The translations under genes and the position numbers were made by a program. Below are positions 40 through 32,450 of a stretch of 64,000 nt of DNA, piece by piece; the first letter of the stretch is position 1, and the number at the start of each line of letters is the position of its first letter. This stretch comes from an uncultured Oscillospiraceae bacterium (GTDB lineage: Bacteria; Bacillota; Clostridia; Oscillospirales; Oscillospiraceae). The DNA lies in NCBI GenBank assembly GCA_964370925.1, contig CAYJLH010000004.1:3167-67166 (forward strand), written 5' to 3'. Below the pieces are notes generated by a model that made no database searches, was not told where the DNA came from, and saw only the letters and a program-made list of their open reading frames with translations.

Positions 40-300
40 TAATGTATTCGTTAAATGCTGTGAAGAGAAGTAGTATCAAGCTTTTTTGCGTTTCAGAGAG
101 GCGATGTTTGGTGAAAATCGCCCGTAAATACTTGAGAAGTCGTCTCCGAGCTTTGTCGGTGAATTTTATGTAGCCAACAACGTATATTCTGCGTTAAAGA
201 ATTCGAGTGCGGAAATTTTATTTTTCCGAACACAGGTGGTACCACGGTATTTTTTAAAATTATCGCCCTGAGATTTTCTCGGGGCTTTTTTTATTTTTAA
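40..300 (+). promoter_or_regulatory. T-box leader (tRNA-sensing riboswitch) upstream of valS. T-box sequence GGTGGTACCACGG at ~237-249 and an intrinsic terminator (gccctgaga/tctcggggc + U7) at 263-293.
   Basis: Matches the T-box consensus AGGGUGGNACCGCG. Strong stem-loop followed by a T-run lies immediately before the valS RBS. aaRS genes in Firmicutes are typically T-box regulated. Confidence 0.55.
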
Positions 301-9955: not shown

Positions 9956-12046
9956 ATGAATAATATTCCTAATATGTTTGGTTGCAAAGTTTTTAACGAT
10001 AATGTTATGCGTACCAGACTTCCAAAAGACGTTTACAAAGCACTTCATAAAACTATTGCTGAAGGAAAACAGCTCGATGTTAAAGTTGCAAATGTTATCG
10101 CCACTGCTATGAAAGAGTGGGCAGTTGAAAACGGCGCAACTCACTACACTCACTGGTTCCAACCCATGACAGGGTCAACCGCTGAAAAGCATGATAGCTT
10201 TATTTCTCCTATTAATAATTGTGAAATTATTATGGAGTTTTCAGGTAAAGAGCTTGTTCGTGGTGAACCCGATGCATCAAGCTTCCCCTCTGGTGGACTT
10301 CGTGCGACTTTCGAAGCTAGAGGATACACAGTCTGGGACACAACTTCTTATGCTTTTATAAAAGACGATTCCCTCTGTATCCCAACAGCTTTCTGCTCAT
10401 ACAGCGGTGAGTCGCTCGACAAAAAAACTCCTCTACTACGTTCTATGGAAGCTATTAACAAGCAAGGTTTGCGTATTATCAAGCTTTTCGGTAATAGCAC
10501 TGCAAAGAGAATTATCACAACAGTTGGTGCTGAACAGGAATATTTTCTCGTAGACAAAGAAGTTTATCTAAAACGCCCCGACCTTATAAACTGCGGTAGA
10601 ACTTTATTCGGCGCTCGCCCTCCCAAGGGTCAAGAGCTTGAAGACCACTACTTCGGTTCTATAAAACCAAGAGTTTCGGCTTATATGAAAGAGCTTGACG
10701 AAGAACTTTGGAAAGTTGGCGTTTTCTCAAAAACAAAACATAACGAGGTTGCTCCGGCTCAACATGAGCTTGCGCCCGTTTTCACAACAACTAACCTAGC
10801 GACTGACCAAAACCAAATCACTATGGCACTTATGAAAGACATCGCCCAAAAGCACGGACTTGTTTGTCTTTTACATGAAAAACCCTTTGCTGGGGTTAAT
10901 GGTAGCGGTAAGCACAATAACTGGGCAATTTCGACAGATACAGGTATTAATCTACTTGAACCAGGTGAAACACCTCATGAAAATGCTCAATTCCTATTGT
11001 TCCTAACTGCAATCATCAAAGCCGTTGACGTTTATCAAGACTTGCTCAGAATTTCTGTTGCAAGTGCCGGAAACGACCACAGACTGGGCGCTAACGAAGC
11101 TCCCCCTGCTATTGTTTCTATCTTCCTCGGCGATGAACTTACTGAAATTTTAGACGCACTAAAAAGTGATTCTGATTACGAAGGTAAAGAGCGTATCCAA
11201 ATGGAAATCGGCACAACCGTTCTTCCTCCGTTCCCAAAAGACACAACAGACCGCAACAGAACTTCACCTTTTGCTTTCACAGGCAATAAGTTTGAGTTCA
11301 GAATGCTCGGTTCTTCAATTTCAATCGCAGGTGCAAACATCATCCTAAACTCTGCTGTTGCAGAAATTTTCGAAGAGTTTGCAGATACACTTGAAAAAGC
11401 AGACGATTTCAAATCGGCTCTTACAAAACTTATTAGAGACACAATCAATAAGCACGACCGTATTATTTTCAACGGAAATAACTACTCTCAGGAGTGGGTT
11501 GAAGAAGCAAAAAGACGTGGTCTATCTAACCTACAGACAACTGTTGACGCTCTTCCAACTTTCCGCAGTGAAGAGAGCAAGAGAATGTTTGCTAATCAAT
11601 GTGTTTTCTCTGGTACAGAAATTGATGCGAGATACGAAATCCTTATGGAGGGCTATTGTAAGACCATACATATTGAGGCTCTCACAATGATTGACCTTAC
11701 TAAAAAGGAAATTTTGGCTTCATCTTTTGAGTATCAATCAGAACTTGTTACACTTTTAAACGGCAAAAAAGCAGTTGGAATTGACACAAGCTCAGAGGAA
11801 GCACTTGTTAAGAAGCTAACAGCTTTGACAAAAGATTTGCTTGCAAAAGTCGATCTACTCGAAACAAATGTCATGAAAGCGTCTGAAACTTCAAATGACA
11901 TTTTAGCTCACGCACAGTATTACAGAAATTCTATTTTCTCTGTCATGAATGAACTTAGACTAGTAGTCGACGAGTTGGAAACCATAGTTGCAAAGAAGCA
12001 CTGGAAATTCCCCTCATACATGGAACTACTATACAGTGTAAACTAG
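9956..12046 (+). CDS. glnN: glutamine synthetase type III
   Basis: 696 aa. GSIII-specific N-terminus (MFGCKVFND) and GS catalytic domain. Confidence 0.9.
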   Translation: MNNIPNMFGCKVFNDNVMRTRLPKDVYKALHKTIAEGKQLDVKVANVIATAMKEWAVENGATHYTHWFQPMTGSTAEKHDSFISPINNCEIIMEFSGKELVRGEPDASSFPSGGLRATFEARGYTVWDTTSYAFIKDDSLCIPTAFCSYSGESLDKKTPLLRSMEAINKQGLRIIKLFGNSTAKRIITTVGAEQEYFLVDKEVYLKRPDLINCGRTLFGARPPKGQELEDHYFGSIKPRVSAYMKELDEELWKVGVFSKTKHNEVAPAQHELAPVFTTTNLATDQNQITMALMKDIAQKHGLVCLLHEKPFAGVNGSGKHNNWAISTDTGINLLEPGETPHENAQFLLFLTAIIKAVDVYQDLLRISVASAGNDHRLGANEAPPAIVSIFLGDELTEILDALKSDSDYEGKERIQMEIGTTVLPPFPKDTTDRNRTSPFAFTGNKFEFRMLGSSISIAGANIILNSAVAEIFEEFADTLEKADDFKSALTKLIRDTINKHDRIIFNGNNYSQEWVEEAKRRGLSNLQTTVDALPTFRSEESKRMFANQCVFSGTEIDARYEILMEGYCKTIHIEALTMIDLTKKEILASSFEYQSELVTLLNGKKAVGIDTSSEEALVKKLTALTKDLLAKVDLLETNVMKASETSNDILAHAQYYRNSIFSVMNELRLVVDELETIVAKKHWKFPSYMELLYSVN

Positions 12047-12131: not shown

Positions 12132-12146
12132 TTGGAGGTATTTATT

Positions 12147-13826
12147 ATGTTCTCAGCAGTTGATACAATTTGGACCTTACTAGCCGCCGCATTGGTTTTT
12201 TTCATGCAGGCTGGATTTGCAATGGTGGAAACAGGCTTTACAAGAGCAAAAAACGCCGGTAACATCATCATGAAAAACATCATGGACTTTTCACTGGGCA
12301 CTCTTATGTTCTGGCTAATCGGTTTTGGCTTAATGTTTGGCGGTGATGGAGCATTTATCGGTGGTTTCGACCCCTTTATCAGAGGCGATTATAGCTCATC
12401 TATCCCAACATCAGCTTTCGTAATATTTCAAACAGTTTTCTGTGCAACAGCTGCAACCATCGTTTCGGGTGCAATGGCAGAGCGCACAAAATTTTCAACC
12501 TACTGCATGTACAGCGTTATTTTAAGTGCTATTGTCTACCCAATTTCAGGTCACTGGATATGGGGCGGCGGTTGGCTTTCACAGCTAGGATTTCATGATT
12601 TTGCCGGCTCAACAGCCGTCCACATGGTTGGTGGTGTTGCCGCTTTAATCGGCGCAAAAACTCTTGGTCCTCGTATAGGAAAATACACTAAAGACGGAAA
12701 ATCAAAAGCTATCCCAGGGCACAGCTTAACTCTTGGCGCATTGGGCGTTTTCATTCTTTGGTTCTGCTGGTTTGGATTTAACGGTGGTTCAACCGTTTCA
12801 ATGACAGACGGTTCTATAGAAGCAGCATCAAACATTTTTGTAACCACAAACATAGCTGCCGCTGCAGCAACAGCAGTTGTAATGGTCATCACATGGGTTC
12901 GCTACAAAAAACCTGACGTTTCAATGACATTAAACGGCGCTCTTGCCGGTCTTGTTGCAATCACAGCAGGCTGTGACGTAGTCACTCCAGCAGGTGCATT
13001 CGCAATTGGTATTATAGCTGGTTTCGTTGTCGTATTTGGAATCGAATTTGTTGACAAAGTTCTAAAAATTGACGACCCTGTCGGCGCTGTCGGAGTTCAC
13101 GGCATGGCAGGTGCTGTTGGTACTATCTTAGTCGGTGTGTTCGCCGTTGACGGTGGTTTGCTATATGGCGGTGGGTTTGCTTATCTTGGTGTGCAAACTA
13201 TCGGTGTTCTAGCAGTTATCGCTTGGGTTTCTGTCACAATGTCTATCGTTTTCACAGTTCTTAAAAACACTGTTGGACTACGTGTTACACACGCAGAAGA
13301 AATTGCCGGTCTTGACATTGAGGAACATGGACTATCAAGCAGTTACGCAGACTTTATGCCTGTTCCAATGGGAACAAACTTCAAACGCAGTGAAGATATT
13401 GAAGAAATCCCAGTCGCAGCAGTTGACGTTGACGAGGCTGTCCCTGTAATTAACACAGCAAAAGCAGGCACAAAAATGTCTAAAGTCGTTATTGTCACAA
13501 GTCAGACCAAGTTTGAAACGCTTAAAAAAGCCTTAGACGGGCTTGGAATTACAGGTATGACTGTAACTCAAGTTTTGGGTTGCGGTATGCAGAAAGGCTC
13601 TACAGCGCTTTACCGCGGTGTTCCGGTAGAGACAAAACTTCTTCCCAAAATCAAAATCGAGATTGTTATATGCAAGGTACCGCTATTGCTTTTCATTAAC
13701 ACAGTTAAAAAGGCACTATACACTGGCAACATCGGCGATGGAAAAATCTTCATCTATGACGTTGAAAATGTAATTAAAGTCAGCACAGGCGAAGAGGGAT
13801 ATGAAGCTCTTCAAGACATAGTTTAA
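12147..13826 (+). CDS. ammonium transporter (Amt) fused in-frame to a C-terminal PII (GlnK/NrgB) domain
   Basis: Single ORF. Residues 1-410 are an Amt channel. After a ~40-aa acidic linker, residues ~452-559 align with B. subtilis NrgB (GCGMQKG...YRG...KIEIV...GDGKIFIYDV...TGEEG). Start at ATG 12147, RBS GGAGG. Confidence 0.85.
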   Translation: MFSAVDTIWTLLAAALVFFMQAGFAMVETGFTRAKNAGNIIMKNIMDFSLGTLMFWLIGFGLMFGGDGAFIGGFDPFIRGDYSSSIPTSAFVIFQTVFCATAATIVSGAMAERTKFSTYCMYSVILSAIVYPISGHWIWGGGWLSQLGFHDFAGSTAVHMVGGVAALIGAKTLGPRIGKYTKDGKSKAIPGHSLTLGALGVFILWFCWFGFNGGSTVSMTDGSIEAASNIFVTTNIAAAAATAVVMVITWVRYKKPDVSMTLNGALAGLVAITAGCDVVTPAGAFAIGIIAGFVVVFGIEFVDKVLKIDDPVGAVGVHGMAGAVGTILVGVFAVDGGLLYGGGFAYLGVQTIGVLAVIAWVSVTMSIVFTVLKNTVGLRVTHAEEIAGLDIEEHGLSSSYADFMPVPMGTNFKRSEDIEEIPVAAVDVDEAVPVINTAKAGTKMSKVVIVTSQTKFETLKKALDGLGITGMTVTQVLGCGMQKGSTALYRGVPVETKLLPKIKIEIVICKVPLLLFINTVKKALYTGNIGDGKIFIYDVENVIKVSTGEEGYEALQDIV

Positions 13827-14047: not shown

Positions 14048-15676
14048 CTAAGATTTTGGTATAATACCATACCCATTTGCGAGTGCATAGTCATGAGCAT
14101 ATGTTCCCACATTACAGCGAATATCGACTTCCATTGCACCCATGCTAAAACCTGTGTCCAATCTACCCTCAATGTTGACAACACTATCAGGTAAGTCGAT
14201 TATGATATCTTCTTGTCCACTAAACATGAATGCACTTCTTCCTATTTCTGTAACACCCTCTGGAACTATAATTTCATCAGGGTCTTCCTTTTGGATGATG
14301 ATAACATAATTACTTGCAATTCGTTTGACTTCCGGAAGATAAACTATCTTCTCGCCATACTCAACAACGTAGTGAACAAGGTTGCTGTCACCAATTATCC
14401 ACGAAGTTCTACCGCCGATATAGTTATCATAATACCAAGCACTGTAAACAAATGAATCACCCGTAACATCAGTCAAACTGTTTGGAATGTATAGTTCATG
14501 CAAGGATTCGCACCCAGAAAAAATATCATCACCCGCAGTGGTCATGCCCTCGGGCAAATATGCCGCTTGCAATTTTTCACTGCCATAAAATGCCTCGTCC
14601 GATATTGATTTTAGGTTGGTTGAAAAAGTCACAGTTGTCAAACTGTCATTTTTGTAAAATGAACGCACACCAATTCTCTCGACAGTGTTTGCCATTACAA
14701 CAGTTTCTATGGATTCATTTTCCAAAAATGCAAAGGCATCTATAACTCTAATCCCCTCGGGAATTGTAATATTTTTACTACTTCCGACATATTTAACCAA
14801 GACATCGTTTATTATAACCATTCCATCTTGTGCATCGCCAATCGGATAATCAGAAAAATCGAAAGATGCTATACCTAGCTTCAAGTTTCGCGGAATATCT
14901 TGTAACGCCCAGCCACTGTAAGCCATTTGGTCTGAAAGACTGTCTTCGTTCCAATGGCTAAACGCAAAGTCGCCGACTTCTTCAAGTGTAGATGGCAAAT
15001 CACCAAAAACTATACTATCTTCGTCTGCATCATAACCACTGAAAGCTCGATTTCCTACATATTTCAGACCCTCATTTAATTTGGCATACTCCAAACTATA
15101 GCAACTGAAAAATGCGTAATCGCCTATAGATTCAAGGGTTTCTGGGAAAATTACCGCCGTTATATAGTCATCATAGAATGCATATTCGGGAATGTGTTTT
15201 GCACCCTCAGGGATGACTAAAACTGCATAATCAGGTACTTCCATAGGAATTACATTTCCATTTTCATCGATTTCAGCCGTAAATTGCTCACGGCTTGCAT
15301 ACTCAGACGGAATTCCTGTCTCATCTTCTACAGGCTCTTGTATAGCCACTTCTTCTGAATAATCAACAGTTTCAGATGTAAATATACCCATAATAGACGA
15401 GAAATTGGACATTATAGCAAAAAATGCAATCAAAAATACAATTGAAACTAAAGGATTTCTTTTCTTGCTTTTAGAACCAGCTTTTGTATTTTTCATTCGC
15501 TCTTTTTCCTCAGCTAGTTCTCTTGCTCTTCTTGCCAGTTCTTGAACTTCATCAAAATCTTTTTGTTTTTGGCTTTTTTCTTTTCCAAAATCTACTGTGT
15601 GAAGTCCGCCACAACCTGGGCAAACTCCCTCACTTTTCTTTTCGTTAAAACTTCTTCCACACCAATCGCAATTCAT
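14048..15676 (-). CDS. membrane-anchored BspA-type leucine-rich-repeat surface protein with N-terminal zinc ribbon
   Basis: CxxC...CxxC N-terminus, a TM helix, then repeated ~23-aa LRR units (IPEG..IG..AF). Confidence 0.75.
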   Translation of the reverse strand: MNCDWCGRSFNEKKSEGVCPGCGGLHTVDFGKEKSQKQKDFDEVQELARRARELAEEKERMKNTKAGSKSKKRNPLVSIVFLIAFFAIMSNFSSIMGIFTSETVDYSEEVAIQEPVEDETGIPSEYASREQFTAEIDENGNVIPMEVPDYAVLVIPEGAKHIPEYAFYDDYITAVIFPETLESIGDYAFFSCYSLEYAKLNEGLKYVGNRAFSGYDADEDSIVFGDLPSTLEEVGDFAFSHWNEDSLSDQMAYSGWALQDIPRNLKLGIASFDFSDYPIGDAQDGMVIINDVLVKYVGSSKNITIPEGIRVIDAFAFLENESIETVVMANTVERIGVRSFYKNDSLTTVTFSTNLKSISDEAFYGSEKLQAAYLPEGMTTAGDDIFSGCESLHELYIPNSLTDVTGDSFVYSAWYYDNYIGGRTSWIIGDSNLVHYVVEYGEKIVYLPEVKRIASNYVIIIQKEDPDEIIVPEGVTEIGRSAFMFSGQEDIIIDLPDSVVNIEGRLDTGFSMGAMEVDIRCNVGTYAHDYALANGYGIIPKS

Positions 15677-15759
15677 TTAACTTCTCCGTTTTCTTATTTA
15701 AAAATCACTGTTTTACCGAATTTGAGTGGATAGGCTAAATTACCTATCCACTCAATAAT

Positions 15760-17292
15760 TTAAAATTGTGCTATAAATCTGTCTAAAATGACTGCCATTT
15801 CAGCGCGAGTTAGTAGTTTATCAGGAGCTAAAAGTCCCTCGTCAGTACCTTTTACTATGCCAGCGGAAACGGCCCACTGCATAGCCTGAACCGACCAATC
15901 AGGCAGGCTTGAGGCATCCGAAAATTCATCAAGAGTTGCCACTTCAAAATCTTCCATTCCCAAATCAATCCCGTAGCGATATAGGAAAGTTACGCATTGC
16001 GCTCTTGTGAGTGAATCATTTGGCAAAAATCTATCCCCGTCGCCCTGTGCAATTTCTGTAAATGCCGCCCATTTCGCAGCTTTTTCATAGTATGAATTTG
16101 CCTCCAAATCGGAGAAGCTCACGCTTCCATCAATGACAGTATTTGGACGAAGTGCTGTTTCAACTCTTGAGAGCGAGGTAATGAACATCGCACGATTTAC
16201 AGTTGAATTCGGTGAAAATTCACCACCACCTGTGCCATTTACAATTTTATCAGCACTGATTTCAGCAACGGCAGAAGCAAACCAATCACTTGCATTGACA
16301 TCACTAAAAGTAGTATTATTAGCGCTTAAATCTAAAGTGTTAACCATATTAGTGAAGCTATCTGCGATATAAAGTTCGTCGTCTACAAGCGCTAATCCAA
16401 CCGGGTTTACAGGCGATAGACCATCTTCAAATCCACCTGTCAAAATCACCGTTTCAGCTCTGCCATCGACAATTTTTCTAACCGCACCATTTCCACTATC
16501 CGAAATGTACAATTCTCCATCATTTGCTATAACTTCTATAGGAGCAGAGAAAAGTGCATTTTTGCCGTTTATAAATCCGTCAATGCCCTCTGTAGAGCCT
16601 GTCAAAGTTGTAACAACTCCATCTTCAATTGCACAAATGCGGTTATTTTCAGTGTCAGCCACATATAAAATTCCATTTTCGTATTCAAGCCCTGTTGGTG
16701 AATTGAAAAGTGCGTCGTCGACGTCTCCATCTGCCCTACCCGCTTCATTTGGTGTTCCTGCAAAGAGTGTAACTTTGCCGTCAGTGTCCATTTTTCTTAT
16801 AACATGGTTGCCACTGTCAGAAATATACACGTTACCCTCTTCATCAACTGCAAGACCTGTCGGGCGGTTGAATTCAACGTCACGGCGTGTTCCATTGCTG
16901 TAACCCTCGTCACTGCCAGCGATTAGTTCAACTGTTCCATTTTCGAGATTTAGCAGTCTAATTCTATGGTTTTCGCTGTCACTAATTGCGTATCCGTCAC
17001 CATATTCCACAATATCCCAAGGAGAGAAAAATCTCGCCTCTTCAACAGTTCCATCTCTATAACTGCCCGAGGGTGTTCCATCAGCATTAGTAGCTCCAAG
17101 CGCACCGGCAATTACTGTAAACTCACCATTTTCAAGTTGCCAAATTTGATGATTATATGTATCTGTAATAATCATACTCCCATCACTGTCAGCTAAAATT
17201 GACGAAGCCGAAATAGGCGTTTCTGCTGCCAAAGTTGTCACACTTCCGACCAAACCTATGGCAAAAGCAGTGGATAAAATTGTCTTTTTCAT
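15760..17292 (-). CDS. secreted NHL-repeat beta-propeller protein with C-terminal SLH domains
   Basis: Signal peptide. Repeated YISDSGNH / YVADTENN NHL motifs. C-terminal SLH-like repeats (DV..W....V). Confidence 0.8.
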   Translation of the reverse strand: MKKTILSTAFAIGLVGSVTTLAAETPISASSILADSDGSMIITDTYNHQIWQLENGEFTVIAGALGATNADGTPSGSYRDGTVEEARFFSPWDIVEYGDGYAISDSENHRIRLLNLENGTVELIAGSDEGYSNGTRRDVEFNRPTGLAVDEEGNVYISDSGNHVIRKMDTDGKVTLFAGTPNEAGRADGDVDDALFNSPTGLEYENGILYVADTENNRICAIEDGVVTTLTGSTEGIDGFINGKNALFSAPIEVIANDGELYISDSGNGAVRKIVDGRAETVILTGGFEDGLSPVNPVGLALVDDELYIADSFTNMVNTLDLSANNTTFSDVNASDWFASAVAEISADKIVNGTGGGEFSPNSTVNRAMFITSLSRVETALRPNTVIDGSVSFSDLEANSYYEKAAKWAAFTEIAQGDGDRFLPNDSLTRAQCVTFLYRYGIDLGMEDFEVATLDEFSDASSLPDWSVQAMQWAVSAGIVKGTDEGLLAPDKLLTRAEMAVILDRFIAQF

Positions 17293-17319: not shown

Positions 17320-19125
17320 CTACAGAATTTTCTCAACTGAAAAGACTTCAAATGGTTCACTTTTTCCTTTTAAACTTAGAGTTCCAAGCGATTTGAATTC
17401 ACCTTGGCCTTCAAGTGCATCCGCAACCGCACGACTTACCAATATTTGTCCTGATTTGGAATTGCTTTCAAGTCTTGCCGCTGTGTTAACTGTATCGCCG
17501 ATAGCTGTGTAGTCCATTCTTTTCGGAGAACCTATGTTACCGACAACAGCAGAACCAAAGTGAACACCAATACCAAAGTCAACACTATGTCCAAATTCTG
17601 CCATCAGTTCTTCTCCAAGAGCTTTTGCACCCTCTCTCATGTCAACCGCAGCTTTGACTGCAAGGTAAATCGGGTTTTCCTGTGGAAGTGGCGCTCCCCA
17701 AAATGCCATGGTGCAGTCACCGATATACTTATCAAGTGTGCCTCGATTTTGGAAAATACAGCTACTTGTTAATGTCAAATATTTATTTACTATTTCAACA
17801 ACCTGTCTTGCGTCAAGTTTTTCTGACATAGTCGTAAAGCCTCGAATGTCGACAAATAAAACAGCAATATCTTTCAAATCTCCGCCAAGTTCAAGTGCTT
17901 GTGGGTCGCCTTTTAAAAGCTCGTTTGCAATTTCAGGCGCGAGGTATCTGTGCAATGTATTTGTAACTTTTCGCTTTTCAAATGTTGCTCTTGTGTAGTT
18001 TGCTCCTACCGAAATCACGTACGCAACCGTCAGTGCTAATGGCAAATACACGATATGTATTACATATCCCGAGTTAAACGCAAAGATACAAAATCCTACG
18101 CACGCTAGGACAGACGCAAACCAAACTGCTGTCGAAATGCGTATTCCTCGGTCATAGAACCAGAAAAACGCTAAAAATGTGATTAAAAATATCGCTATTG
18201 CCTGAGGAACTTTTGATACTTCTTCTTTTAGTTCTCCGCTCAAAAGTGCTGCGACTGCGTTAGCTTGGTATTCAACTCCGTACATTTTTACAGAGTGGTC
18301 TACAGCTGTAATGTAGTCGTCCTGCATCCCCTGTGAGTATGGCCCGATTAGTACAATTTTGTCTGCAAATAGCTGTGGGTCAAGCTCTTGATATACAAGG
18401 TCTGCAATAGAAAATCCATCGTCAAACGCACCTGGCGCAGATTGATAATTCAAATACCACATATGCCTTGGGTCTGTGGGTGGAACTGCAAAATCAGTCT
18501 CGCCCTGAGATTCCATATACATATTATATACAGCGCGGTGAAACGAGGGTATTTCTCTTCCATCGGGTAAGTCAATTTGCCAAATAGCATGGCGCAAAAT
18601 TCCATCAAAGTCTAACATACCGTTGATGTGACCTTGCTCTGTGACTTCTTTTAAAGCTTCGTACGGTTCTTCATACTGCAAAACTGCAAAAGTATCCAGA
18701 TAAAAAGAGCCGTCGTCGTTTACAACAAGTTCCTCGCCAAATGTTGCCGTTGAACCTGTAACGACATTTCCATATCTTCCCGATGCTTCAACCAAGGCGG
18801 CGTCGGCGTCGGGATATTCACTTTCACCTATATAAGTCGTATCAATTCCGATTACTGCCGGGCGATTTTCGGGATCTTGATTTAAATACTCAATCGCCTC
18901 CGCCATGATATCTCTAGGCCACGGCATAGGGCCGAATTCATCAACCGCCCTTTCATCCATACCAATAAGTATTATTTCGGATGGTGGGGTTTTCGGCTGT
19001 TGGTAGGCTACGTCGGCTAACACGTTAGCCTGTGTGAGCATGATATCAGTGGAATAGAGCACTGTGAAAAACAGTGCTCCAACCGTAGCTAGCAGAAAAC
19101 GCTGAATTTGCTTGCGTTTATTCAT
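17320..19125 (-). CDS. CHASE2-sensor class III adenylate/guanylate cyclase
   Basis: N-terminal CHASE2 followed by TM helices and a CYC domain (FVDIRGFT...GDCTMAFWGAP...GIGVHFGSAVVGNIG). Confidence 0.85.
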   Translation of the reverse strand: MNKRKQIQRFLLATVGALFFTVLYSTDIMLTQANVLADVAYQQPKTPPSEIILIGMDERAVDEFGPMPWPRDIMAEAIEYLNQDPENRPAVIGIDTTYIGESEYPDADAALVEASGRYGNVVTGSTATFGEELVVNDDGSFYLDTFAVLQYEEPYEALKEVTEQGHINGMLDFDGILRHAIWQIDLPDGREIPSFHRAVYNMYMESQGETDFAVPPTDPRHMWYLNYQSAPGAFDDGFSIADLVYQELDPQLFADKIVLIGPYSQGMQDDYITAVDHSVKMYGVEYQANAVAALLSGELKEEVSKVPQAIAIFLITFLAFFWFYDRGIRISTAVWFASVLACVGFCIFAFNSGYVIHIVYLPLALTVAYVISVGANYTRATFEKRKVTNTLHRYLAPEIANELLKGDPQALELGGDLKDIAVLFVDIRGFTTMSEKLDARQVVEIVNKYLTLTSSCIFQNRGTLDKYIGDCTMAFWGAPLPQENPIYLAVKAAVDMREGAKALGEELMAEFGHSVDFGIGVHFGSAVVGNIGSPKRMDYTAIGDTVNTAARLESNSKSGQILVSRAVADALEGQGEFKSLGTLSLKGKSEPFEVFSVEKIL

Positions 19126-19148
19126 TTTAGCTCCTTTTAGTCATATCA

Positions 19149-21707
19149 TTAATAATTTGTCATAATAAAATATCCTGAAGCATCGGCATTATCTGCCACT
19201 GTTCCACCGCTAGAAATAACATCCGTTTTATCTTTCGCCCTTGCAACCGCAGCTGCATAGGCATAAGTTATACTTGGACTTCCAGACATAATATCAACAG
19301 CATATCCTTCACCGACTGTATCTTTTGTGATAAATCCCTTTACGAAGTTGAGAGTTGATGTGCCATCTTCTAGTGATACCGCCGAGCCATCTGTACTTGA
19401 ATTTGATATTTCTACACCATTAATTGTCAATTCACTTCCCGAAGAAACCAAAACAGTTTTATCATCACTAGAAATTAGTTTTCCATTTCCACCGACTATG
19501 GTCACATCATTATCTATTGTCATACGTGCTTCTTGAGTATCTGATGGGTTCACTCCCAAGTCGAATGTAAAGCCTCCAAGATTTAATTCTATTTCATTAT
19601 CGATAATCAAACCATTAAATGAATCAGAGAGCGCAGTATTTTCGTATAAGCTGATAGTATCACCATCTACAGCACTGTCAAAAACCGCTTGTAGACTTTG
19701 CTCATACATGTATCCATTGCCTCTTTCTCCATCAAATCTCATTGAAATAAGGTCAACATTATTAGATAATTTAGATATTAACCCAGAAGTTTTTAGCAAG
19801 AATAATTCACCAACATTCGACACTAGGCAACCATTAAATTCAACATCACCACTGCCACTATCAAAAACACCTGTATTTTCTAGTGTCTTATCCGACAATG
19901 TAATATCACCTTTATTTATTATTGTCCCTGTGTTATGAAGTTGGACTCCGGCTGGTGCAGTCAATTCACCCCCAACTGTTAAGGTGCCATAAGCTTCATT
20001 TGTAAATCTACCAGCATTTCCAAATCCACCATTGGCTGTTACATCACCGTTGTTTACAACTGTTCCAAAGGTAGATGCAGCATTGTCTTCAAGATTTAAG
20101 AACGAACCCTCAGTTTCGACAGTACCGTTCAAAGTCATCACACCTTGGTTTTGGATTTGATTAGCTGTGATACTTGCAGAATTTCCGTTTGTAAACTCAC
20201 CACCAAAATCATTTAGAAAAACATCTGCAACTTCAATTTTTCCTTGGTTTGTGATTTTTCCTACGGAGCGTAAATCTTGTGAAACTTTTATTTCTGATAA
20301 AGCTGTATTGTTTGTAATTTCACCATTGTTATAACAGGTCATCTTGCTCGCATCAGAATTTGTAATTTCCAATATTCCGTCGTTTGAAAGTATGCCCTCT
20401 TCAACAGATAATTGATTTACAGTTAGTTTGTCACCTGATGAAATGTAAACTCTGGCTGACTTGCCAAGGCTTGTCGAACCAACATACAAGACATCTTCTA
20501 ATGTTGCATTTCCATTTAAAATAAAGCTGTTATTGCTTAGAATAAATGTTTGAATTCCAGCACCTATTTTAAGTTCACCACCATCAGAAACGACAAGTGA
20601 ACCCTCAACTTGAATTTGTGGAGTTCCTGATGCTGCAATGAATTCAACATCCGCACCCGACTGAATATAAACACCTTTTCCTGTTGGAATTAGTGCAGAT
20701 TCACTAATTGTAATGTCTTTTTCTCCTGAAATTACAACATTTTTAACACCCTCAACACTTAGCTGAGTTATTAGTTCTTCAAATGTAGAGCCTGTAAAGA
20801 GTACTGTGGGTGATACATTTCCATCGCTATCATCGTCACTGCTTCCACCGCTACTGGGTCGGCTTGGTTCTTCCTCTTCTGCGGCTTCTTCGTCTAATTT
20901 TTCGTTCTCTTCGGCCTCAACATCGATTTCAGCTTGTGCAGTTTCGACAATGGCTTCTTGTTTTTCTTCTTCCGCTTTTAATTCTTCTTGCGCATTCTCA
21001 ATTAGAGTATTCGAATCTAAACCACTTTGTTCCTGAACAACCGCTTGAAGCTCTTCGTCTTTCTCAACTTCAACTTTTACGAAAGCCGGAACTATTTCCT
21101 CTGTAAGTGGAGTGATTTCGGGCGCATTTCCGCTTTGTTCTTCGACACTGGCTTTGAAGCCCGCTTCTAAAATTTCTGTTTCGACTTCTGTTGTCCCTTG
21201 CTTTACAGAACTGACTTCAACGCGACCCGAAAGCAAAGAAACTTCACTGCCATTTTCATTCAATTCAACAAATCCTGATGTCCCTCTGATACCTGTAACC
21301 ATACTAGACGTTCTGACTGTCATGGTTTCGGTTTCTTTAAGAGGCGCTGTTACATTGAAAAATAGCTTTCCTGTTGACAGTAAAAGCTCAAGCTGTTCGC
21401 CTTTCTTTTTAACTGTGCAAGTTGTCAATGAGTCGAGCTTCACGACCTTATCATCATCAAGGCTTATATAAGCATAGCTTGAAGATGAAGTTGTGATTTT
21501 ATACCCATTATTGAGTTTCATTCCCTCTCTTGCGGTTATCGTGTTGCCTGCTGCGTTTTTTAAAGTTATAGTTCCCTCTATAACTTCAAGGCGCAAAGTT
21601 GATGAAACTGCGCTGTCCGCAGCTATAGCCACTGTTCCCAAAAGCATTGCAACTATTAGGAAAATTGCAACTGATTTGGAAGCACCGGCAAGTTTTGATT
21701 GATGCAT
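19149..21707 (-). CDS. secreted FecR-domain protein with an acidic linker and a long right-handed beta-helix region
   Basis: Start moved to ATG 21707 (MHQSKL, RBS AGGGGGAA), which removes overlap with the upstream gene. FecR-like N-domain, E-rich linker, Asn/Gly-rich parallel beta-helix repeats. Confidence 0.7.
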   Translation of the reverse strand: MHQSKLAGASKSVAIFLIVAMLLGTVAIAADSAVSSTLRLEVIEGTITLKNAAGNTITAREGMKLNNGYKITTSSSSYAYISLDDDKVVKLDSLTTCTVKKKGEQLELLLSTGKLFFNVTAPLKETETMTVRTSSMVTGIRGTSGFVELNENGSEVSLLSGRVEVSSVKQGTTEVETEILEAGFKASVEEQSGNAPEITPLTEEIVPAFVKVEVEKDEELQAVVQEQSGLDSNTLIENAQEELKAEEEKQEAIVETAQAEIDVEAEENEKLDEEAAEEEEPSRPSSGGSSDDDSDGNVSPTVLFTGSTFEELITQLSVEGVKNVVISGEKDITISESALIPTGKGVYIQSGADVEFIAASGTPQIQVEGSLVVSDGGELKIGAGIQTFILSNNSFILNGNATLEDVLYVGSTSLGKSARVYISSGDKLTVNQLSVEEGILSNDGILEITNSDASKMTCYNNGEITNNTALSEIKVSQDLRSVGKITNQGKIEVADVFLNDFGGEFTNGNSASITANQIQNQGVMTLNGTVETEGSFLNLEDNAASTFGTVVNNGDVTANGGFGNAGRFTNEAYGTLTVGGELTAPAGVQLHNTGTIINKGDITLSDKTLENTGVFDSGSGDVEFNGCLVSNVGELFLLKTSGLISKLSNNVDLISMRFDGERGNGYMYEQSLQAVFDSAVDGDTISLYENTALSDSFNGLIIDNEIELNLGGFTFDLGVNPSDTQEARMTIDNDVTIVGGNGKLISSDDKTVLVSSGSELTINGVEISNSSTDGSAVSLEDGTSTLNFVKGFITKDTVGEGYAVDIMSGSPSITYAYAAAVARAKDKTDVISSGGTVADNADASGYFIMTNY

Positions 21708-21735
21708 TTGTTTTTTCCCCCTAAAACTTTTCAAG

Positions 21736-23184
21736 TTAAATATAAAGTGCTTTTTCCCAAGCACGACTATCCGCAAACAGTCTGAATAATTCTCGATCGA
21801 GTTTTCCCTCTTCGACCATTTCTGCCAAAATTATCAGAGCTTTTTCAGGTGAAACACCGCTTTTATATGGTCTATCCAATGCAGTTATCCCCTCAAATAT
21901 ATCCAAAATTGTCAAAAGCCTTGTTTCCATGTCTAGTGTTTCACCACTTTTGCAGTCGGGATAGCCTGTCCCGTCTAAAAACTCATGGTGCGCCCCTGCC
22001 CATTTCGGTACATTTTTATAGTCACCGTCAAACCTAATTTTTTCAAGTATATCGCGAGTGACTCTTACATGGCTTTCCATTACCTGTCTTTCCGTCGCTG
22101 TCAACGTGCCTTTTCTGATACACAGTGCATCGATTTCATCCTCTGTCAGCCAAGTACATTCCTCGCCATGTTGGTTTGTATATTTACGTCTGCCCAATGC
22201 AATTATTTCCTCGAGTCGTGAATCTTCAACATATCCCATGGAATTAATTACAATAACTTGCTCTCTTGCATAGTTTAGCTCTTCTAAAAACTTTGTGCAG
22301 TCTTTCTGTTGTTCCAAGGCTTCGACCTTACCCAGAAGCGCAATTATGTCAAATCTTGTCATAATCTCTTCCAATTTTTCTTCAAGCCTTGTTCCCTTGT
22401 TCATAACTTCAAGCGGTATGACAAGTTTTCCAACATCATGTAGCCAAATACTCATCAAAAATTGGCGTCTGTGTCGCTCATCAAATTTAATGCTTGAATT
22501 TATTTCATCCAAATAGTCCATGAAAGCATTGGCATATTTAACCATATTCGTCGTGTGATGGACATTATATGGTGTTCTATGGTAAATTACAGTTGAAAAA
22601 GTCTCAACAATAGACTCCATCAAGTCCTGCATTTTTCTTGTGTAATTCATATTCGTAAGGCTTACAGCCGCTTGTGATGCCAAAGCAAGCAAAATAATTT
22701 CGCTCTCAGGGATAAATGCAATAGTCACATCATCCTCATCTTTTGCATTAATCAACTGCATAACGCCAATGATTTCGCCCCTGTCATTTTCCATAGGAAC
22801 AACCATCATAGATTTAGTTACATAACCTGTTAAAGAATCGTAACGAATAGGCCCTGAGAAGTCGAAAAGTTCACTTCTTCTAACATCAGGGATATTCACC
22901 AAACGATTTTCAAGCACAGAATAAGCGCAGACATGCGAGTGATTTAGGGCAACAGGCGGTAAGTCAATTTTTCCGTGTACGCCACCCTTTAAAATATCGA
23001 GCGACTTTGTCACCATCACTTTAAATTCAAGTGCATCATTTTCTAAAATATATATCGTTCCACCATCACATTGAGTGATGCTCATTGCTTCTGTCAATAT
23101 GCGTTCCAAAAGTCGGTCGCCGTTTTTCTCAACCGCCATTGCAATATTTAAAGCTAAAAGTCTATGGATACTTACACCTTTCAT
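21736..23184 (-). CDS. GAF-sensor HD-GYP phosphohydrolase (cyclic dinucleotide phosphodiesterase family)
   Basis: GAF N-domain. HD motif (HDVGK) and HHEFLDGTGYP. Confidence 0.85.
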   Translation of the reverse strand: MKGVSIHRLLALNIAMAVEKNGDRLLERILTEAMSITQCDGGTIYILENDALEFKVMVTKSLDILKGGVHGKIDLPPVALNHSHVCAYSVLENRLVNIPDVRRSELFDFSGPIRYDSLTGYVTKSMMVVPMENDRGEIIGVMQLINAKDEDDVTIAFIPESEIILLALASQAAVSLTNMNYTRKMQDLMESIVETFSTVIYHRTPYNVHHTTNMVKYANAFMDYLDEINSSIKFDERHRRQFLMSIWLHDVGKLVIPLEVMNKGTRLEEKLEEIMTRFDIIALLGKVEALEQQKDCTKFLEELNYAREQVIVINSMGYVEDSRLEEIIALGRRKYTNQHGEECTWLTEDEIDALCIRKGTLTATERQVMESHVRVTRDILEKIRFDGDYKNVPKWAGAHHEFLDGTGYPDCKSGETLDMETRLLTILDIFEGITALDRPYKSGVSPEKALIILAEMVEEGKLDRELFRLFADSRAWEKALYI

Positions 23185-23993
23185 ATGGAGAAAACCTCCC
23201 CTCTTTTTGCGAAAAAGCTATTTTCCATCTCGGATTTCAGCTTATTTTCCTCAAATTTGAGTTCGTCATCGGTGCGATTTGGGTCGTGGTGGAAAATACA
23301 AAGGTGCTCAGCGCCGGCTTCCTTTGCTAGTTTTGCCGTTGTCATTATACTAGAATGACCAAAACCTCTGTGAGTTTCAAGCTCCTCTTCCGTATACTGT
23401 CCATCGCAAATTAAAAGTGAGCAGTTTTTTGCAAACTCAATAAGCTTGCCACGGCTGTTTTCCGTAATTTCATAATCGGTTGAATACACCAAGGTTTTTC
23501 CGTCATAACTGATTTTATAGGCGGTACAACCACCGGGGTGTTGACCTTCCATGATTTCTATTTCAACATCGCCAATAGAAAATCCACCTGTAAGCTCTTT
23601 AAATTCAACTTTCGATGTAAATGCACCAGAATCAACCGCCCAAAGTGGAGGTTTCATCAGAGTTTCAAGTTGCTCCCTCGGCCCTCCGACTGCACGTTTC
23701 ACCGCATAAATCGTCACTTGGCAGTTTTCGTTATACAATATTCTTGAAATAGGCAGACCCAACAAATGGTCAGCATGGGGATGTGAAATCAAAATATGTA
23801 GATTATTTTCGTTTTCCTTTAGCAGAGCAGGTAAAGAAACAAAACCACTGCCCGCGTCCAAAACTATGCATTGTTCGCCAACACGCAAAAACACACATGC
23901 CGTCGCCCCTCCGTATTCAGAGTACATAGGCCCATCAATGGGAACTGAACCACGCGCTCCGAGTATTGTGGCTTCGAATTTTCGCATTAACAA
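23181..23993 (-). CDS. metallo-beta-lactamase-fold hydrolase
   Basis: HxHxDH motif (ISHPHADHL). ATGA-coupled to the HD-GYP gene. Confidence 0.8.
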   Translation of the reverse strand: MLMRKFEATILGARGSVPIDGPMYSEYGGATACVFLRVGEQCIVLDAGSGFVSLPALLKENENNLHILISHPHADHLLGLPISRILYNENCQVTIYAVKRAVGGPREQLETLMKPPLWAVDSGAFTSKVEFKELTGGFSIGDVEIEIMEGQHPGGCTAYKISYDGKTLVYSTDYEITENSRGKLIEFAKNCSLLICDGQYTEEELETHRGFGHSSIMTTAKLAKEAGAEHLCIFHHDPNRTDDELKFEENKLKSEMENSFFAKRGEVFSI

Positions 23994-24141
23994 TCTCCTT
24001 TTATTATAAATAGTATTATTTTATATTTTCAAAAAATTTTTATTAAGACCAGACAATATTTTATCATAACTCGCGAATTTTGAAAAGACGTTATGTGTGA
24101 ACATTTCGATAATTTTCGCCAAAATTCGTAAGTTTTTCTTG

Positions 24142-30462: not shown

Positions 30463-32265
30463 TTATTTATATTCGCTAAGTCCCAAACGCTCAAGAGTTG
30501 CCTCTGTTGGGAAAGCAGAATCCCAACCACGTACGTCATAATATTGTGGAAGAGTTACAGGTAGTTCACTAATCATACCCTTAGATGGGCCGTCTGGGAT
30601 AACTTCTTCAAGCAAACGCTTAGGAAGCTTATCGTCCTCGGGTTTCATGCCTGCGTGCTTATTAAATTGGCGCTCAATATTATAAATACGCTCACCAACT
30701 TCAAGCAATTGCTCCGGTGTGTAAGTTGTGCCTGTTGCAGCATTTAAAAGACCTGCATATTGTGGCGCACCCATAGCAAATGATGAGAACAAGCAAAGTC
30801 CCATGCTGTCAATAACAGCAGTTAGGTCTTGGAATATTTTACACCAAGTTGCTTTGCCCTCTGTTGCTGTGCGGTCTAGTTGCTCAGGAAGTCCTAGAAC
30901 CTCTGGGGAAATTAGATATCCACGAACATGGCAACCGCCACGGTTACTTGTTGCATAAGTTATGCCAATTCCTTGAATAGCACGTGGGTCATATGCTGGA
31001 AGCTCTTGCTTCTTAACGCTCATTGAAACTTCTGGATGACCATAATGCTCACAAAGTCTAAAGCTACCGTCAGCCATTAGTTTTGCAAGTGGAATTTTTC
31101 CTTCACCCATGCGCTTTGTCCACTCGATGATAGCTTCTGAACTACCCCAAGCTAGTGGAACACCCTCACATTCCTCTTCCTTGATTGCGCCGATTTGGTA
31201 AAGTTCCATAGCCGCAGCGATAGTACAAGGAGTTGAAATCGCATCGAGTCCGTATTCATTACACCAGTAGTTTGCCTCATTGATAGCAGTAAGGTCACTG
31301 ATATTACAGTTACCGCCGTATGCCCATAGTGGCTCATACTCAGGGCCACCAGTGACTTTTCCGTCGATTTCAATCATACGACCGCAACCCATAGGACAGC
31401 GATGGCAGAAACTTTGCTTTACAAGGTGTTTTTCTCTTAATGTTTCTCCCGATGTCTCGTCAGCCGGTGGGAAATATGCTTCTTGCCAGTTACGAGTTGG
31501 GAAAGCTCCTGTGTTATTGATAATGTTAACCAGAACAGCTGTACCATAAGTTGGTAGACCCTGACCGGTAACACCGTTTTCACGAATTAGTTTCATGCTC
31601 TCAGCTGTTACCGCTTTCAAAGCGTCAGCATCAGCTGGTTTAATAACTGTACGTGATGCACTTACTGTGATAGCCTTAAAATTCTTGCTACCCATAACCG
31701 CACCAACACCACTACGACCTGCCGCACGGTGCTTATCATTCATGATACATGCAAGCAGTGATAGATTTTCACCTGATGGGCCAATGTTCAAAACTGCACA
31801 CTTTGGATAAATTTCTTTCAATTTATCGTCAATGTGTTCGCTCATCATGCCCATATAGGGACTTGCGTCCAAAAGTTCAATCTTATCGTCCTCAATGTTG
31901 AGGTAAACAGGTTTTTCTGATTTTCCCTCGACAATAATTCCGTCATAACCTGCATATTTAAGTTTTGCACCCCAAACACCACCTGAGTTTGATGACGCAA
32001 TCATGCCTGTTAGCGGTGATTTTGTCACAACCATGTATCTACCGGCTGTTGGTGAAGCTGTTCCTGTCATTGGACCTGCTAGGAACACCAATTTGTTTTG
32101 TGGGCTTAGTGGTTCAACAGTTGCGACACCCTCATCCATCAAAATTTTTGTACCCAATCCACGACCGCCAATAAACTTTATAGCATCGTCTAAGTTTAGG
32201 TCTTCAACTTTGATAGCGCCCTCTGTTAGGTTAACACGAATAATTTTTCCGCAATATGATGTTGA
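30463..32265 (-). CDS. aor: aldehyde:ferredoxin oxidoreductase (tungstopterin enzyme family)
   Basis: AOR N and C domains. Start moved to ATG 32265 (MSTSYCGKIIRVNL) with RBS GAGGAGG. Confidence 0.9.
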   Translation of the reverse strand, partial: STSYCGKIIRVNLTEGAIKVEDLNLDDAIKFIGGRGLGTKILMDEGVATVEPLSPQNKLVFLAGPMTGTASPTAGRYMVVTKSPLTGMIASSNSGGVWGAKLKYAGYDGIIVEGKSEKPVYLNIEDDKIELLDASPYMGMMSEHIDDKLKEIYPKCAVLNIGPSGENLSLLACIMNDKHRAAGRSGVGAVMGSKNFKAITVSASRTVIKPADADALKAVTAESMKLIRENGVTGQGLPTYGTAVLVNIINNTGAFPTRNWQEAYFPPADETSGETLREKHLVKQSFCHRCPMGCGRMIEIDGKVTGGPEYEPLWAYGGNCNISDLTAINEANYWCNEYGLDAISTPCTIAAAMELYQIGAIKEEECEGVPLAWGSSEAIIEWTKRMGEGKIPLAKLMADGSFRLCEHYGHPEVSMSVKKQELPAYDPRAIQGIGITYATSNRGGCHVRGYLISPEVLGLPEQLDRTATEGKATWCKIFQDLTAVIDSMGLCLFSSFAMGAPQYAGLLNAATGTTYTPEQLLEVGERIYNIERQFNKHAGMKPEDDKLPKRLLEEVIPDGPSKGMISELPVTLPQYYDVRGWDSAFPTEATLERLGLSEYK

Positions 32266-32325
32266 CATAAAAAAATCCTCCTCATTTTTGAATAATATTT
32301 CGATTTTACGTAAAAATAAGCACGC

Positions 32326-32415
32326 AAAACCAAAATCCTTTCCAAATACGGGAGGCATCACAATTACGGCGGATACCCTTAGGCTTATTTCCATATCAAA
32401 TAAGCTCGGATTTAT
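32326..32415 (-). promoter_or_regulatory. candidate molybdenum/tungsten-cofactor (Moco) riboswitch in the aor 5' leader
   Basis: Minus-strand transcript carries blocks AAAUCCGAGC, the hairpin gcuuauuu-gauaugg-aaauaagc, then UAUCCGCCG, GCCUCCCG and GGAAAGGAUUU. A P1 AAAUCC/GGAUUU closes the element. The blocks resemble my recollection of the Moco RNA motif (CCGAGC, CCGCC, CCUCC, GGAAAGG). Preceded by the promoter at 32422-32450. Confidence 0.4.
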
Positions 32416-32421
32416 AGTACT

Positions 32422-32450
32422 ATATTACCATAATTCAAATCGACTGTCAA
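32422..32450 (-). promoter_or_regulatory. candidate sigma-A promoter for aor (TTGACA, 17-nt spacer, TAATAT)
   Basis: Minus-strand hexamers at 32445-32450 and 32422-32427. Confidence 0.4.

Follow-up and report, generated by a model that had tools for sequence, protein, structure and literature searches.

A CHASE2 Adenylate Cyclase Operon of an Uncultured Oscillospiraceae Bacterium and Its Putative Relay from cAMP to c-di-GMP

Introduction

How many second messengers does an operon handle when one nucleotide cyclase is encoded next to two potential nucleotide-degrading enzymes? This question is raised by a 64,000-nucleotide (nt) stretch of DNA from an uncultured Oscillospiraceae bacterium (contig CAYJLH010000004.1 of assembly GCA_964370925.1, hereafter the window), whose minus strand carries adjacent genes for a metallo-β-lactamase (MBL)-fold hydrolase, a GAF-HD-GYP protein, a secreted FecR-domain protein, and a CHASE2 cyclase. 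An earlier note, made by a model from the letters of the window, described these genes as a four-gene operon that makes and breaks a single second messenger. The four minus-strand open reading frames (ORFs) lie where that note placed them, and each domain it named was confirmed by Pfam. The present analysis, which builds on what could be observed directly (the order of the genes, how intact their motifs are, the families they belong to, and their co-occurrence), leads to a different view of how the parts are connected. On balance, a two-messenger relay is favored, in which a signal is turned into cyclic AMP (cAMP), cAMP acts through the GAF domain on the hydrolysis of cyclic di-GMP (c-di-GMP), and the MBL enzyme resets cAMP.

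Enzymes of the Operon

The cyclase gene (17320..19125, minus strand, like all genes of the operon) encodes 601 aa, matched by the Pfam models CHASE2 (125 bits) and Guanylate_cyc (94 bits). Generally, a lysine paired with an aspartate marks class IIIa and a lysine paired with a threonine or serine class IIIb among the adenylate cyclases of class III, and glutamate and cysteine mark guanylate cyclases. Among 19 orthologues at 50–80% identity, the metal-binding residues D426 (FVDIRGFT) and D470 (IGDCTMA), the substrate lysine K466 together with T540, and the transition-state residues N547 and R551 are all invariant. In the PDB, the sequence is matched best by CyaB of Pseudomonas aeruginosa (3r5g, 2.2e-33), a class IIIb adenylate cyclase with whose lysine and threonine K466 and T540 align. 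Because all six catalytic residues are present, with the Lys/Thr pair, the protein was assigned to class IIIb, and it probably makes cAMP from ATP. The earlier note had made its reading depend on the two catalytic aspartates, which are kept, and had proposed to read the nucleotide specificity from the Lys/Asp or Glu/Cys positions, which point to an adenylate cyclase. One hydrophobic segment ahead of CHASE2 and three behind it, as read from the sequence, indicate an extracellular CHASE2 domain and a cytoplasmic catalytic domain.

The MBL-fold gene (23181..23987; 268 aa, within a widest ORF of 23181–23993) matches Lactamase_B_2 with 59 bits. Its product carries the motif SHPHADH, which fits the signature [T/S]HxHxDH that has been reported by Thomson et al. 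to define the atypical class-II phosphodiesterases, such as Rv1339, YhfI, and CpdA (PMC9293780). The metal ligands do not vary across 38 relatives, where H69, H71, D73, H74, H150, D171, H211, H233, and H234 are all unchanged, and each of the 38 has a serine or threonine before the motif when aligned; among the MBL proteins of related loci that show the motif, serine or threonine also comes first in all except that of locus L013 (GHVHIDH). The AlphaFold2 model of the protein is well defined (mean predicted local distance difference test, pLDDT, of 95.7), and its top match in the PDB is Bacillus subtilis YhfI (6kns, E = 6.5e-17), an enzyme that strongly prefers cAMP and cGMP (PMC9117128). RNase Z, BA1088, and PhnP-family enzymes follow in the fold search, where Apyc1 ranks 35th. 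The MBL protein is thus predicted to be probably an atypical class-II cAMP phosphodiesterase of the YhfI/Rv1339/CpdA kind. An identification as RNase Z was considered and rejected, as the RNase Z models reach 75–78 bits against cut-offs of 252–293 and match the C-terminal third only, and the gene context also speaks otherwise. As separate observations, one relative of the MBL protein (P0176, 363 aa) was recorded with a Guanylate_cyc domain, which may be due to a truncated or merged gene call, and another, from Chthoniobacterales (P0179), was recorded with a receiver domain.

The GAF-HD-GYP gene (21736..23184; 482 aa) matches GAF with 47 bits and HD_5 with 95 bits. The HHExxDGxGYP motif, the HD dyad, and further metal-binding histidines are intact, and 19 relatives all share H210, HD249-250, K253, H372, HHE399-401, G405, GYP407-409, D428, and R438. 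R438 opens the sequence R-P-Y-K, whose K441 is at least 90% conserved and is replaced by arginine in L035. The motif Rxx(K/R) has been associated with guanine reading in HD-GYP proteins of the c-di-GMP type, while RxxQ is found in enzymes specific for cyclic GMP-AMP (cGAMP) (10.1101/600031); the protein was assigned to the c-di-GMP type because of its RxxK motif. When the GAF domain alone was compared with all PDB sequences, every match below E = 1e-4 was a GAF domain that binds cyclic nucleoside monophosphates (cNMPs), including PDE5 GAF-A (6.7e-12), Anabaena CyaB2 (5e-9), PDE6, PDE2 GAF-B, and the cAMP-binding GAF domain of Lcd1 (5W10, 7.8e-5). Residues 116–125 form the pattern D-x-x-T-G-Y-x-T-x-S, which is common to PDE5 and CyaB2 and recurs almost throughout the GAF proteins that accompany CHASE2 cyclases, whichever of the two output types described below they carry. 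Moreover, the cAMP-activated enzymes Tlr0485, a GAF-HD-GYP protein, and Lcd1, a GAF-GGDEF protein, provide precedents (PMC8846402). The GAF-HD-GYP protein is therefore predicted, from its motifs and relatives, to be probably a cAMP-regulated c-di-GMP phosphodiesterase.

Partner Genes in Related Loci

The order MBL, GAF-HD-GYP, FecR (one or two copies), cyclase, and NHL is kept around the relatives of the cyclase at 80, 58, 54, and 51% identity, and in some of these four neighborhoods a GGDEF or PilZ gene adjoins the cluster. The cyclase alignment was further scanned against one genome per GTDB species, which gave 80 further loci at 57–27% identity. ORFs in these loci were assigned by iterated profile searches with each domain of the window proteins, and unexpected neighbors were checked by Pfam and NCBIfam; profiles were needed, as plain tblastn with the window proteins missed most partners of the FecR, MBL, and GGDEF types.

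Co-occurrence was counted within 6 kb of the cyclase, in 37 non-redundant loci of the Firmicutes type whose sequence extends 3 kb or more to either side. A GAF-linked c-di-GMP enzyme of any kind is present in 30 of them, namely GAF-HD-GYP in 20, GAF-GGDEF in 9, and the two together in 1; the GGDEF partners have an intact GGEEF and a canonical ND..GH..GD motif. A candidate phosphodiesterase lies near the cyclase in 33/37 loci, either as the MBL protein only (17/37), as a 260-aa TIM barrel of the AP_endonuc_2 family only (15/37), or as both (1/37), and one of the four loci with neither (L003) has an MBL gene 8.5 kb off. FecR proteins are found in 29/37 loci and NHL proteins in 8/37. Among 18 loci of other phyla, only FecR stays linked (FecR in 11, GAF in 1), and the association of FecR proteins with CHASE2 cyclases, stated in the earlier note, is borne out in both samples. 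In the reverse direction, 80 metagenomic relatives of the GAF-HD-GYP protein were sampled: each of the five that reach 38% identity has one or more further cassette genes linked to it, and of the 18 loci whose flanks extend for 4 kb or more, 7 have a class III cyclase within 6 kb. The recurrence of the gene order is far beyond chance, the operon is conserved widely among Clostridia of the gut type, and the co-conservation on which the earlier note had made its operon depend is evident in the four close relatives and in the 37 Firmicutes loci. Since a GAF-GGDEF synthase replaces the HD-GYP protein in sister loci, the latter is better understood as a second-messenger output device than as a second cAMP hydrolase.

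Gene fusions connect the same parts more closely. Directly 3' of the CHASE2 cyclase, six loci encode single MBL-GAF-GGDEF proteins of 567–615 aa with an intact GGEEF (L015 11806–13518, L016 11763–13511, L017 11804–13507, L019 7108–8817, L039 3071–4918, and L045 10214–11935), an architecture of which no description was found in the literature searched. On a metagenome contig, the gene immediately 3' of the CHASE2 cyclase (L093 7182–9575) encodes a 797-aa protein that combines, by score, a class-II cAMP phosphodiesterase (PF02112)/MBL domain with GAF and HD-GYP. In L131 (6560–8644), a CHASE2-HD-GYP fusion lies beside a FecR-domain gene, and here the sensor is coupled straight to c-di-GMP hydrolysis with no cAMP step. 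In addition, a gene for a GAF-MshEN-T2SSE ATPase is located between cyclase/MBL and GAF-HD-GYP in L106 (4451–6853) and L107 (5489–7903). MshEN is a c-di-GMP-binding domain, and the presence of this gene may point to an output through type IV pili or secretion. Proteins of about 790 aa resembling it were also seen in L095 and L117, in environmental versions of the cluster.

In cyclase loci without an MBL gene, the gene right after the cyclase encodes the 260-aa TIM barrel, for instance in L023 (11830–12615), L026 (11696–12487), L037 (11812–12612), and 18 further loci. Of its relatives that carry a name, the phosphodiesterases CbiR and endonuclease IV match best. The near mutual exclusion of MBL protein and TIM barrel looks like a non-orthologous replacement, so that the TIM barrel may represent a new class of cyclic-nucleotide phosphodiesterase.

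Secreted Partners of the Cyclase

The FecR-domain gene (19149..21707) most likely starts at ATG 21707, preceded by GGGGG, and encodes 852 aa. The widest ORF (19149–21776), from which the earlier note took an unusually large protein of 875 aa, begins with TTG and would run 41 nt into the HD-GYP gene, and the gene of the 80%-identical relative was called at 855 aa, so the shorter form is preferred. With 852 aa the protein is still large relative to the median of its set (493 aa), which nevertheless reaches 1662 aa. It consists of an N-terminal signal or anchor, whose hydrophobic segment terminates in AIAA/DS, a FecR domain (PF04773, 48.6 bits, cut-off 24), an acidic linker, and a 550-aa all-beta C-terminus, and it is predicted to be secreted or membrane-anchored.

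The C-terminal 550 aa (residues 303–852; 19152–20801 of the window) are nearly an orphan: among 1.84 billion representatives searched, only the protein itself and its closest orthologue (34%) match, and a word-index search gave the self-match only. A single-sequence AlphaFold2 model (pLDDT 61) has about 50 short, regularly spaced strands. A Foldseek search with it gave no significant match (best E = 0.013), and its weak matches are all beta-solenoids (Ag43, TibA, and a tailspike). The beta-helix proposed in the earlier note is hence a plausible description of this region and not a result. Among the 71 FecR proteins that accompany these cyclases, an N-terminal module of about 230 aa is conserved, while the C-terminal extensions vary from 0 to 1427 aa and are alike only among close relatives, a pattern typical of exposed, fast-evolving surface regions. 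A role as a FecR anti-sigma factor of the FecI/FecR/FecA type was rejected: the FecR domain is shared, but no anti-sigma domain, extracytoplasmic function sigma factor, or TonB-dependent receptor accompanies it, as the protein opens with a signal or anchor in place of a cytoplasmic anti-sigma N-terminus and the neighboring genes that were scanned yielded neither a sigma factor nor a receptor.

A fifth gene, which the earlier note overlooked, follows the cyclase (15760..17292; 510 aa) and has a ribosome-binding site of its own. Its product has a signal peptide, Pfam NHL repeats that form a beta-propeller, and three C-terminal SLH domains as cell-wall anchors. An NHL gene comes after the cyclase in L001–L006 and accompanies it in L010, L035, L038, L051, L052, and L090. 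As a side observation, the Paenibacillus nasutitermitis locus L052 (13809–15404) contains cyclase, FecR, and NHL with no GAF enzyme nearby, and its NHL protein ends in Cu_amine_oxidN1 rather than SLH, suggesting that the propeller is attached through wall-associated modules that differ from lineage to lineage.

Alternative Explanations and Proposed Pathway

Four other explanations of the operon were weighed. The one closest to the earlier note holds that the MBL and HD-GYP proteins both degrade the product of the cyclase. Three enzymes in one operon, with both hydrolases from phosphodiesterase superfamilies, are what such a make-and-break module would contain, but two degrading enzymes for one messenger do not agree with the residues found: the cyclase, with its Lys/Thr pair, belongs to the mononucleotide enzymes of class III, the MBL protein is the likely cAMP breaker, and the HD-GYP protein has the guanine-reading RxxK of c-di-GMP enzymes. 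Moreover, the GAF-GGDEF synthase that takes its place in nine sister loci cannot break cAMP, and we know of no HD-GYP protein that hydrolyzes cAMP, so this explanation is quite improbable. It is also unlikely, if less strikingly so, that the genes are co-expressed and not wired through cAMP, with the GAF domain sensing another small molecule or none and the HD-GYP protein serving as an independent c-di-GMP input that has no more than a promoter in common with the cAMP module. GAF domains bind many ligands, the structurally solved GAF domain of PmGH is without a known ligand, the NKFDE motif is incomplete, and a sequence does not reveal which ligand is bound. Nevertheless, the GAF domain is nearest to cNMP-binding GAF domains only, the same GAF type goes with the cyclase for HD-GYP and GGDEF outputs alike, and GAF is fused to a class-II cAMP phosphodiesterase in L093 and to MBL in the six GGDEF proteins.

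The MBL protein might instead act after the HD-GYP protein, clearing linear pGpG, or be an RNase Z-like nuclease on RNA. The translational coupling of the two genes would suit this, as would the high rank of RNase Z in the fold search and in NCBIfam, whereas the low, C-terminal RNase Z scores, the occurrence of MBL beside cyclases with no c-di-GMP enzyme nearby (L070, L074), and the scoring of the L093 fusion as a PF02112 class-II cAMP phosphodiesterase would not; moreover, in some loci MBL sits beside a GAF-GGDEF synthase or is fused to one, a setting in which pGpG clearance would be senseless, and we regard such a role as very improbable. Hardly credible is a Pycsar-type anti-phage system, in which the cyclase would make a pyrimidine or other unusual cyclic nucleotide controlled by an Apyc1-like MBL protein. 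The cyclase domain does match PADLOC PycC models (best 1e-29), and some MBL relatives give weak matches to PF23023 (Apyc1). A match to PycC is expected, however, since PycC and class III cyclases are homologous. The Lys/Thr pair is of the purine (ATP) type, Apyc1 stands far down the fold search, and environmental signaling is the typical setting for a sensor built of CHASE2 and FecR and for c-di-GMP enzymes. Among the six proteins searched with PADLOC, no effector (a cNMP-binding transmembrane or TIR protein) was found, and no locus protein other than the cyclase matched convincingly, so a reading as a defense system was rejected.

The two-messenger relay itself meets with several observations that weigh against it. 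No GGDEF or PilZ gene was found in the window by tblastn with queries from related loci, and 7 of the 37 Firmicutes loci are without a GAF enzyme within 6 kb. RNase Z ranks almost level with YhfI in the MBL fold search, and the MBL protein reaches 58.8 bits against a cut-off of 400 with NF041851, "cyclic nucleotide-degrading phosphodiesterase"; the alignment is full length, and the score below the cut-off makes the protein a relative and not an equivalog of that family. The GAF domain has the NKFDE motif in part (N-A-K...F-x3-S-E, read from the sequence). The best solved relative of the HD-GYP domain by sequence is the 3'3'-cGAMP phosphodiesterase 5z7c, and the domain contains an insertion of about 90 aa (residues ~265–355) between PLEVMNKxTRL and IRKGTLT that has no Pfam match. 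Pfam HD_5 accordingly covers profile positions 59–170 only, the domain not being contiguous at the standard length; as the insertion is found family-wide, the cyclase-linked GAF-HD-GYP proteins form a distinct subfamily. Furthermore, cAMP may either activate or inhibit the HD-GYP protein, and the roles given to the FecR and NHL proteins come from their co-location.

Even so, the relay is favored because the cyclase is constant while MBL and TIM-barrel hydrolases alternate beside it, because one GAF type serves both c-di-GMP arms, and because fusions join the same parts. In the proposed pathway, the outward CHASE2 domain would sense an extracellular or cell-surface cue together with the FecR protein and the wall-anchored NHL propeller, and the fast-evolving, beta-rich C-terminus of the FecR protein would be the exposed part of the sensor. 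The cytoplasmic class IIIb domain, whose catalytic residues are present, would then convert ATP to cAMP. Binding of cAMP to the GAF domain would switch the HD-GYP c-di-GMP phosphodiesterase, as sequence, context, and precedent suggest, so that an outside cue would lower c-di-GMP, and the MBL protein, as an atypical class-II phosphodiesterase, would hydrolyze cAMP and reset the system. For every step there is an experimental precedent in another organism, as Tlr0485, Lcd1, and GacB are activated by cAMP and YhfI hydrolyzes it. Sister lineages retain the cyclase, with a GAF-GGDEF synthase in place of the HD-GYP output and the TIM barrel, a candidate phosphodiesterase, in place of the MBL protein. 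We infer the enzyme activities, the binding of cAMP, the sign of regulation, and the partnership of FecR and NHL proteins with CHASE2 from these comparisons.

A wider reading of the cassette is put forward tentatively, and we regard it as rather doubtful. A modular CHASE2-cyclase sensor would be widespread in Clostridia, with FecR and NHL proteins as co-receptors and the GAF domain leading to either c-di-GMP arm; lineages would invert the response by exchanging HD-GYP and GGDEF, the TIM barrel would be a new phosphodiesterase class, and the C-termini of the FecR proteins would capture the ligand.

Operon Extent and Flanking Features

The spacing of the genes is as tight as the earlier note described. 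The MBL stop codon and the HD-GYP start codon overlap as ATGA, and the gaps read from the sequence are 28 nt between HD-GYP and FecR, 23 nt between FecR and cyclase, and 27 nt between cyclase and NHL. The MBL gene itself most likely starts at ATG 23987, preceded by AAGGAG. A promoter-like site (24003..24032, minus strand; TTGAAA-18 nt-TATAAT, a match to 11/12 consensus positions and to the consensus only) lies within an AT-rich spacer of 150 bp 5' of the MBL gene. A search of the leader with Rfam for a c-di-GMP or other riboswitch gave no match near the operon. Five nt past the NHL stop codon begins a 14-bp perfect hairpin (15722..15755, minus strand; −23.2 kcal/mol, z = −6.1, equalled by 0 of 200 shuffles), which is probably the 3' end of the operon transcript. 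The terminator scan returned no convincing site at the operon end, and the hairpin, which was spotted by eye and by folding, was overlooked by it for want of a U-tract. From the gene junctions, the NHL gene, the hairpin, and the upstream promoter-like site, the unit is taken as five genes from about 24000 to 15720. The operon of cyclic-nucleotide signaling genes proposed in the earlier note is thus supported, with one gene more than it had counted.

Past the hairpin lies a gene (14048..15676, minus strand) for a protein with an N-terminal zinc ribbon (CxxC...CxxC), a transmembrane segment, and BspA-type leucine-rich repeats (Pfam LRR_5). This downstream gene and the upstream NAGPA gene are conserved only in the closest relative (L001). 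The LRR_5 protein is a doubtful member of the operon and probably stands outside the conserved cassette, being kept only in that 80% relative.

Several other features were noted elsewhere in the window. A T-box leader (51–273, plus strand; 143.9 bits) precedes an 873-aa ORF (320–2941), which is presumably an aminoacyl-tRNA synthetase gene. The 5' end annotated for ORF 30463–32394 falls within a molybdenum/tungsten cofactor riboswitch (32319–32423, minus strand; 45.8 bits), and the true start of this ORF is probably further downstream. An ammonium-transporter-like ORF (12132–13826, plus strand), preceded by a glutamine-synthetase-like ORF of 696 aa (9956–12046), has an apparent in-frame C-terminal P-II (GlnK-like) domain, as judged from its translation.

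Relation to Known Systems

The nearest published gene cluster is that of Campylobacterota, in which a CHASE2 adenylate cyclase, a cAMP phosphodiesterase, a FecR protein, and a TPR protein have been suggested to act in a single pathway (Mo et al. 2022, mBio; PMC9239204). The two clusters have in common the CHASE2 cyclase, a known or predicted cAMP phosphodiesterase of whatever type, FecR, and a repeat-protein partner. However, the fourth protein of Campylobacterota is a TPR protein, its FecR is in the outer membrane, and no c-di-GMP enzyme has been reported, whereas the cluster of the window is without a TPR protein, has an NHL/SLH wall protein as partner, and has GAF-HD-GYP built in. In Burkholderia, the BiofilmReg operon places a secreted FecR/LysM protein beside a CHASE2 histidine kinase (PMC5192318), but its output is the histidine kinase with a response regulator, with no cyclase and no nucleotide phosphodiesterases.

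The proposed logic is known from single enzymes. Tlr0485 of Thermosynechococcus vulcanus has the same domain architecture and proposed logic as the GAF-HD-GYP protein, to which it is likened by architecture and not by sequence; no report of a dedicated cyclase and phosphodiesterase operon was found for it, and the window protein differs by its HD-GYP insertion. In Lcd1 of Leptospira interrogans (5W10) and GacB of Myxococcus xanthus, a cAMP-reading GAF domain drives a cyclic-dinucleotide enzyme; the GAF-GGDEF architecture of Lcd1 occurs in sister loci, often with MBL fused in front, while the window has as its output an HD-GYP protein, which acts in the opposite sense. Bd1971 of Bdellovibrio is a cAMP-gated c-di-GMP phosphodiesterase on which two messengers converge, as proposed for the window, but it uses the unrelated CAP-type cNMP-binding and EAL domains in place of GAF and HD-GYP. 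As well, YhfI of B. subtilis, Rv1339 of Mycobacterium tuberculosis, and CpdA of Corynebacterium glutamicum share with the window MBL protein the fold, the [T/S]HxHxDH motif, and a similar size; the window protein is about 20% identical to YhfI and differs in that its gene belongs to a cyclase operon and is translationally coupled to HD-GYP. In the open-access literature, no description was found of a CHASE2 cyclase operon with GAF-HD-GYP or GAF-GGDEF, nor of the NHL partner and the MBL/TIM-barrel alternation of CHASE2 cyclases. Every part comes from a known family, and for their wiring in one operon these searches gave no earlier description.

Implications

The factors recognized by CHASE2 domains were not known when the matter was considered in 2016 (PMC5192318). 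The pairing of CHASE2 with two conserved secreted partners provides concrete co-receptor candidates, and, if the proposed role is true, the hypervariable C-termini of the FecR proteins would be the first experimental handle on CHASE2 sensing. Cross-talk between cAMP and c-di-GMP is known from isolated enzymes, such as Tlr0485, Lcd1, and Bd1971, while here the whole path would lie in one transcription unit. The natural output swaps between c-di-GMP synthesis and hydrolysis may offer a clean system for the evolution of signaling polarity, and the replacement of MBL by the TIM barrel is a lead to a possible new phosphodiesterase class.

Signaling by cAMP in Clostridia has been little studied, and the cluster predicts a dedicated cyclase, phosphodiesterase, and receptor for cAMP in many metagenome-assembled genomes of Oscillospiraceae and Lachnospiraceae. 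In Clostridia, c-di-GMP controls motility, pili, and adhesion, and the cassette could, therefore, govern surface colonization by gut commensals.

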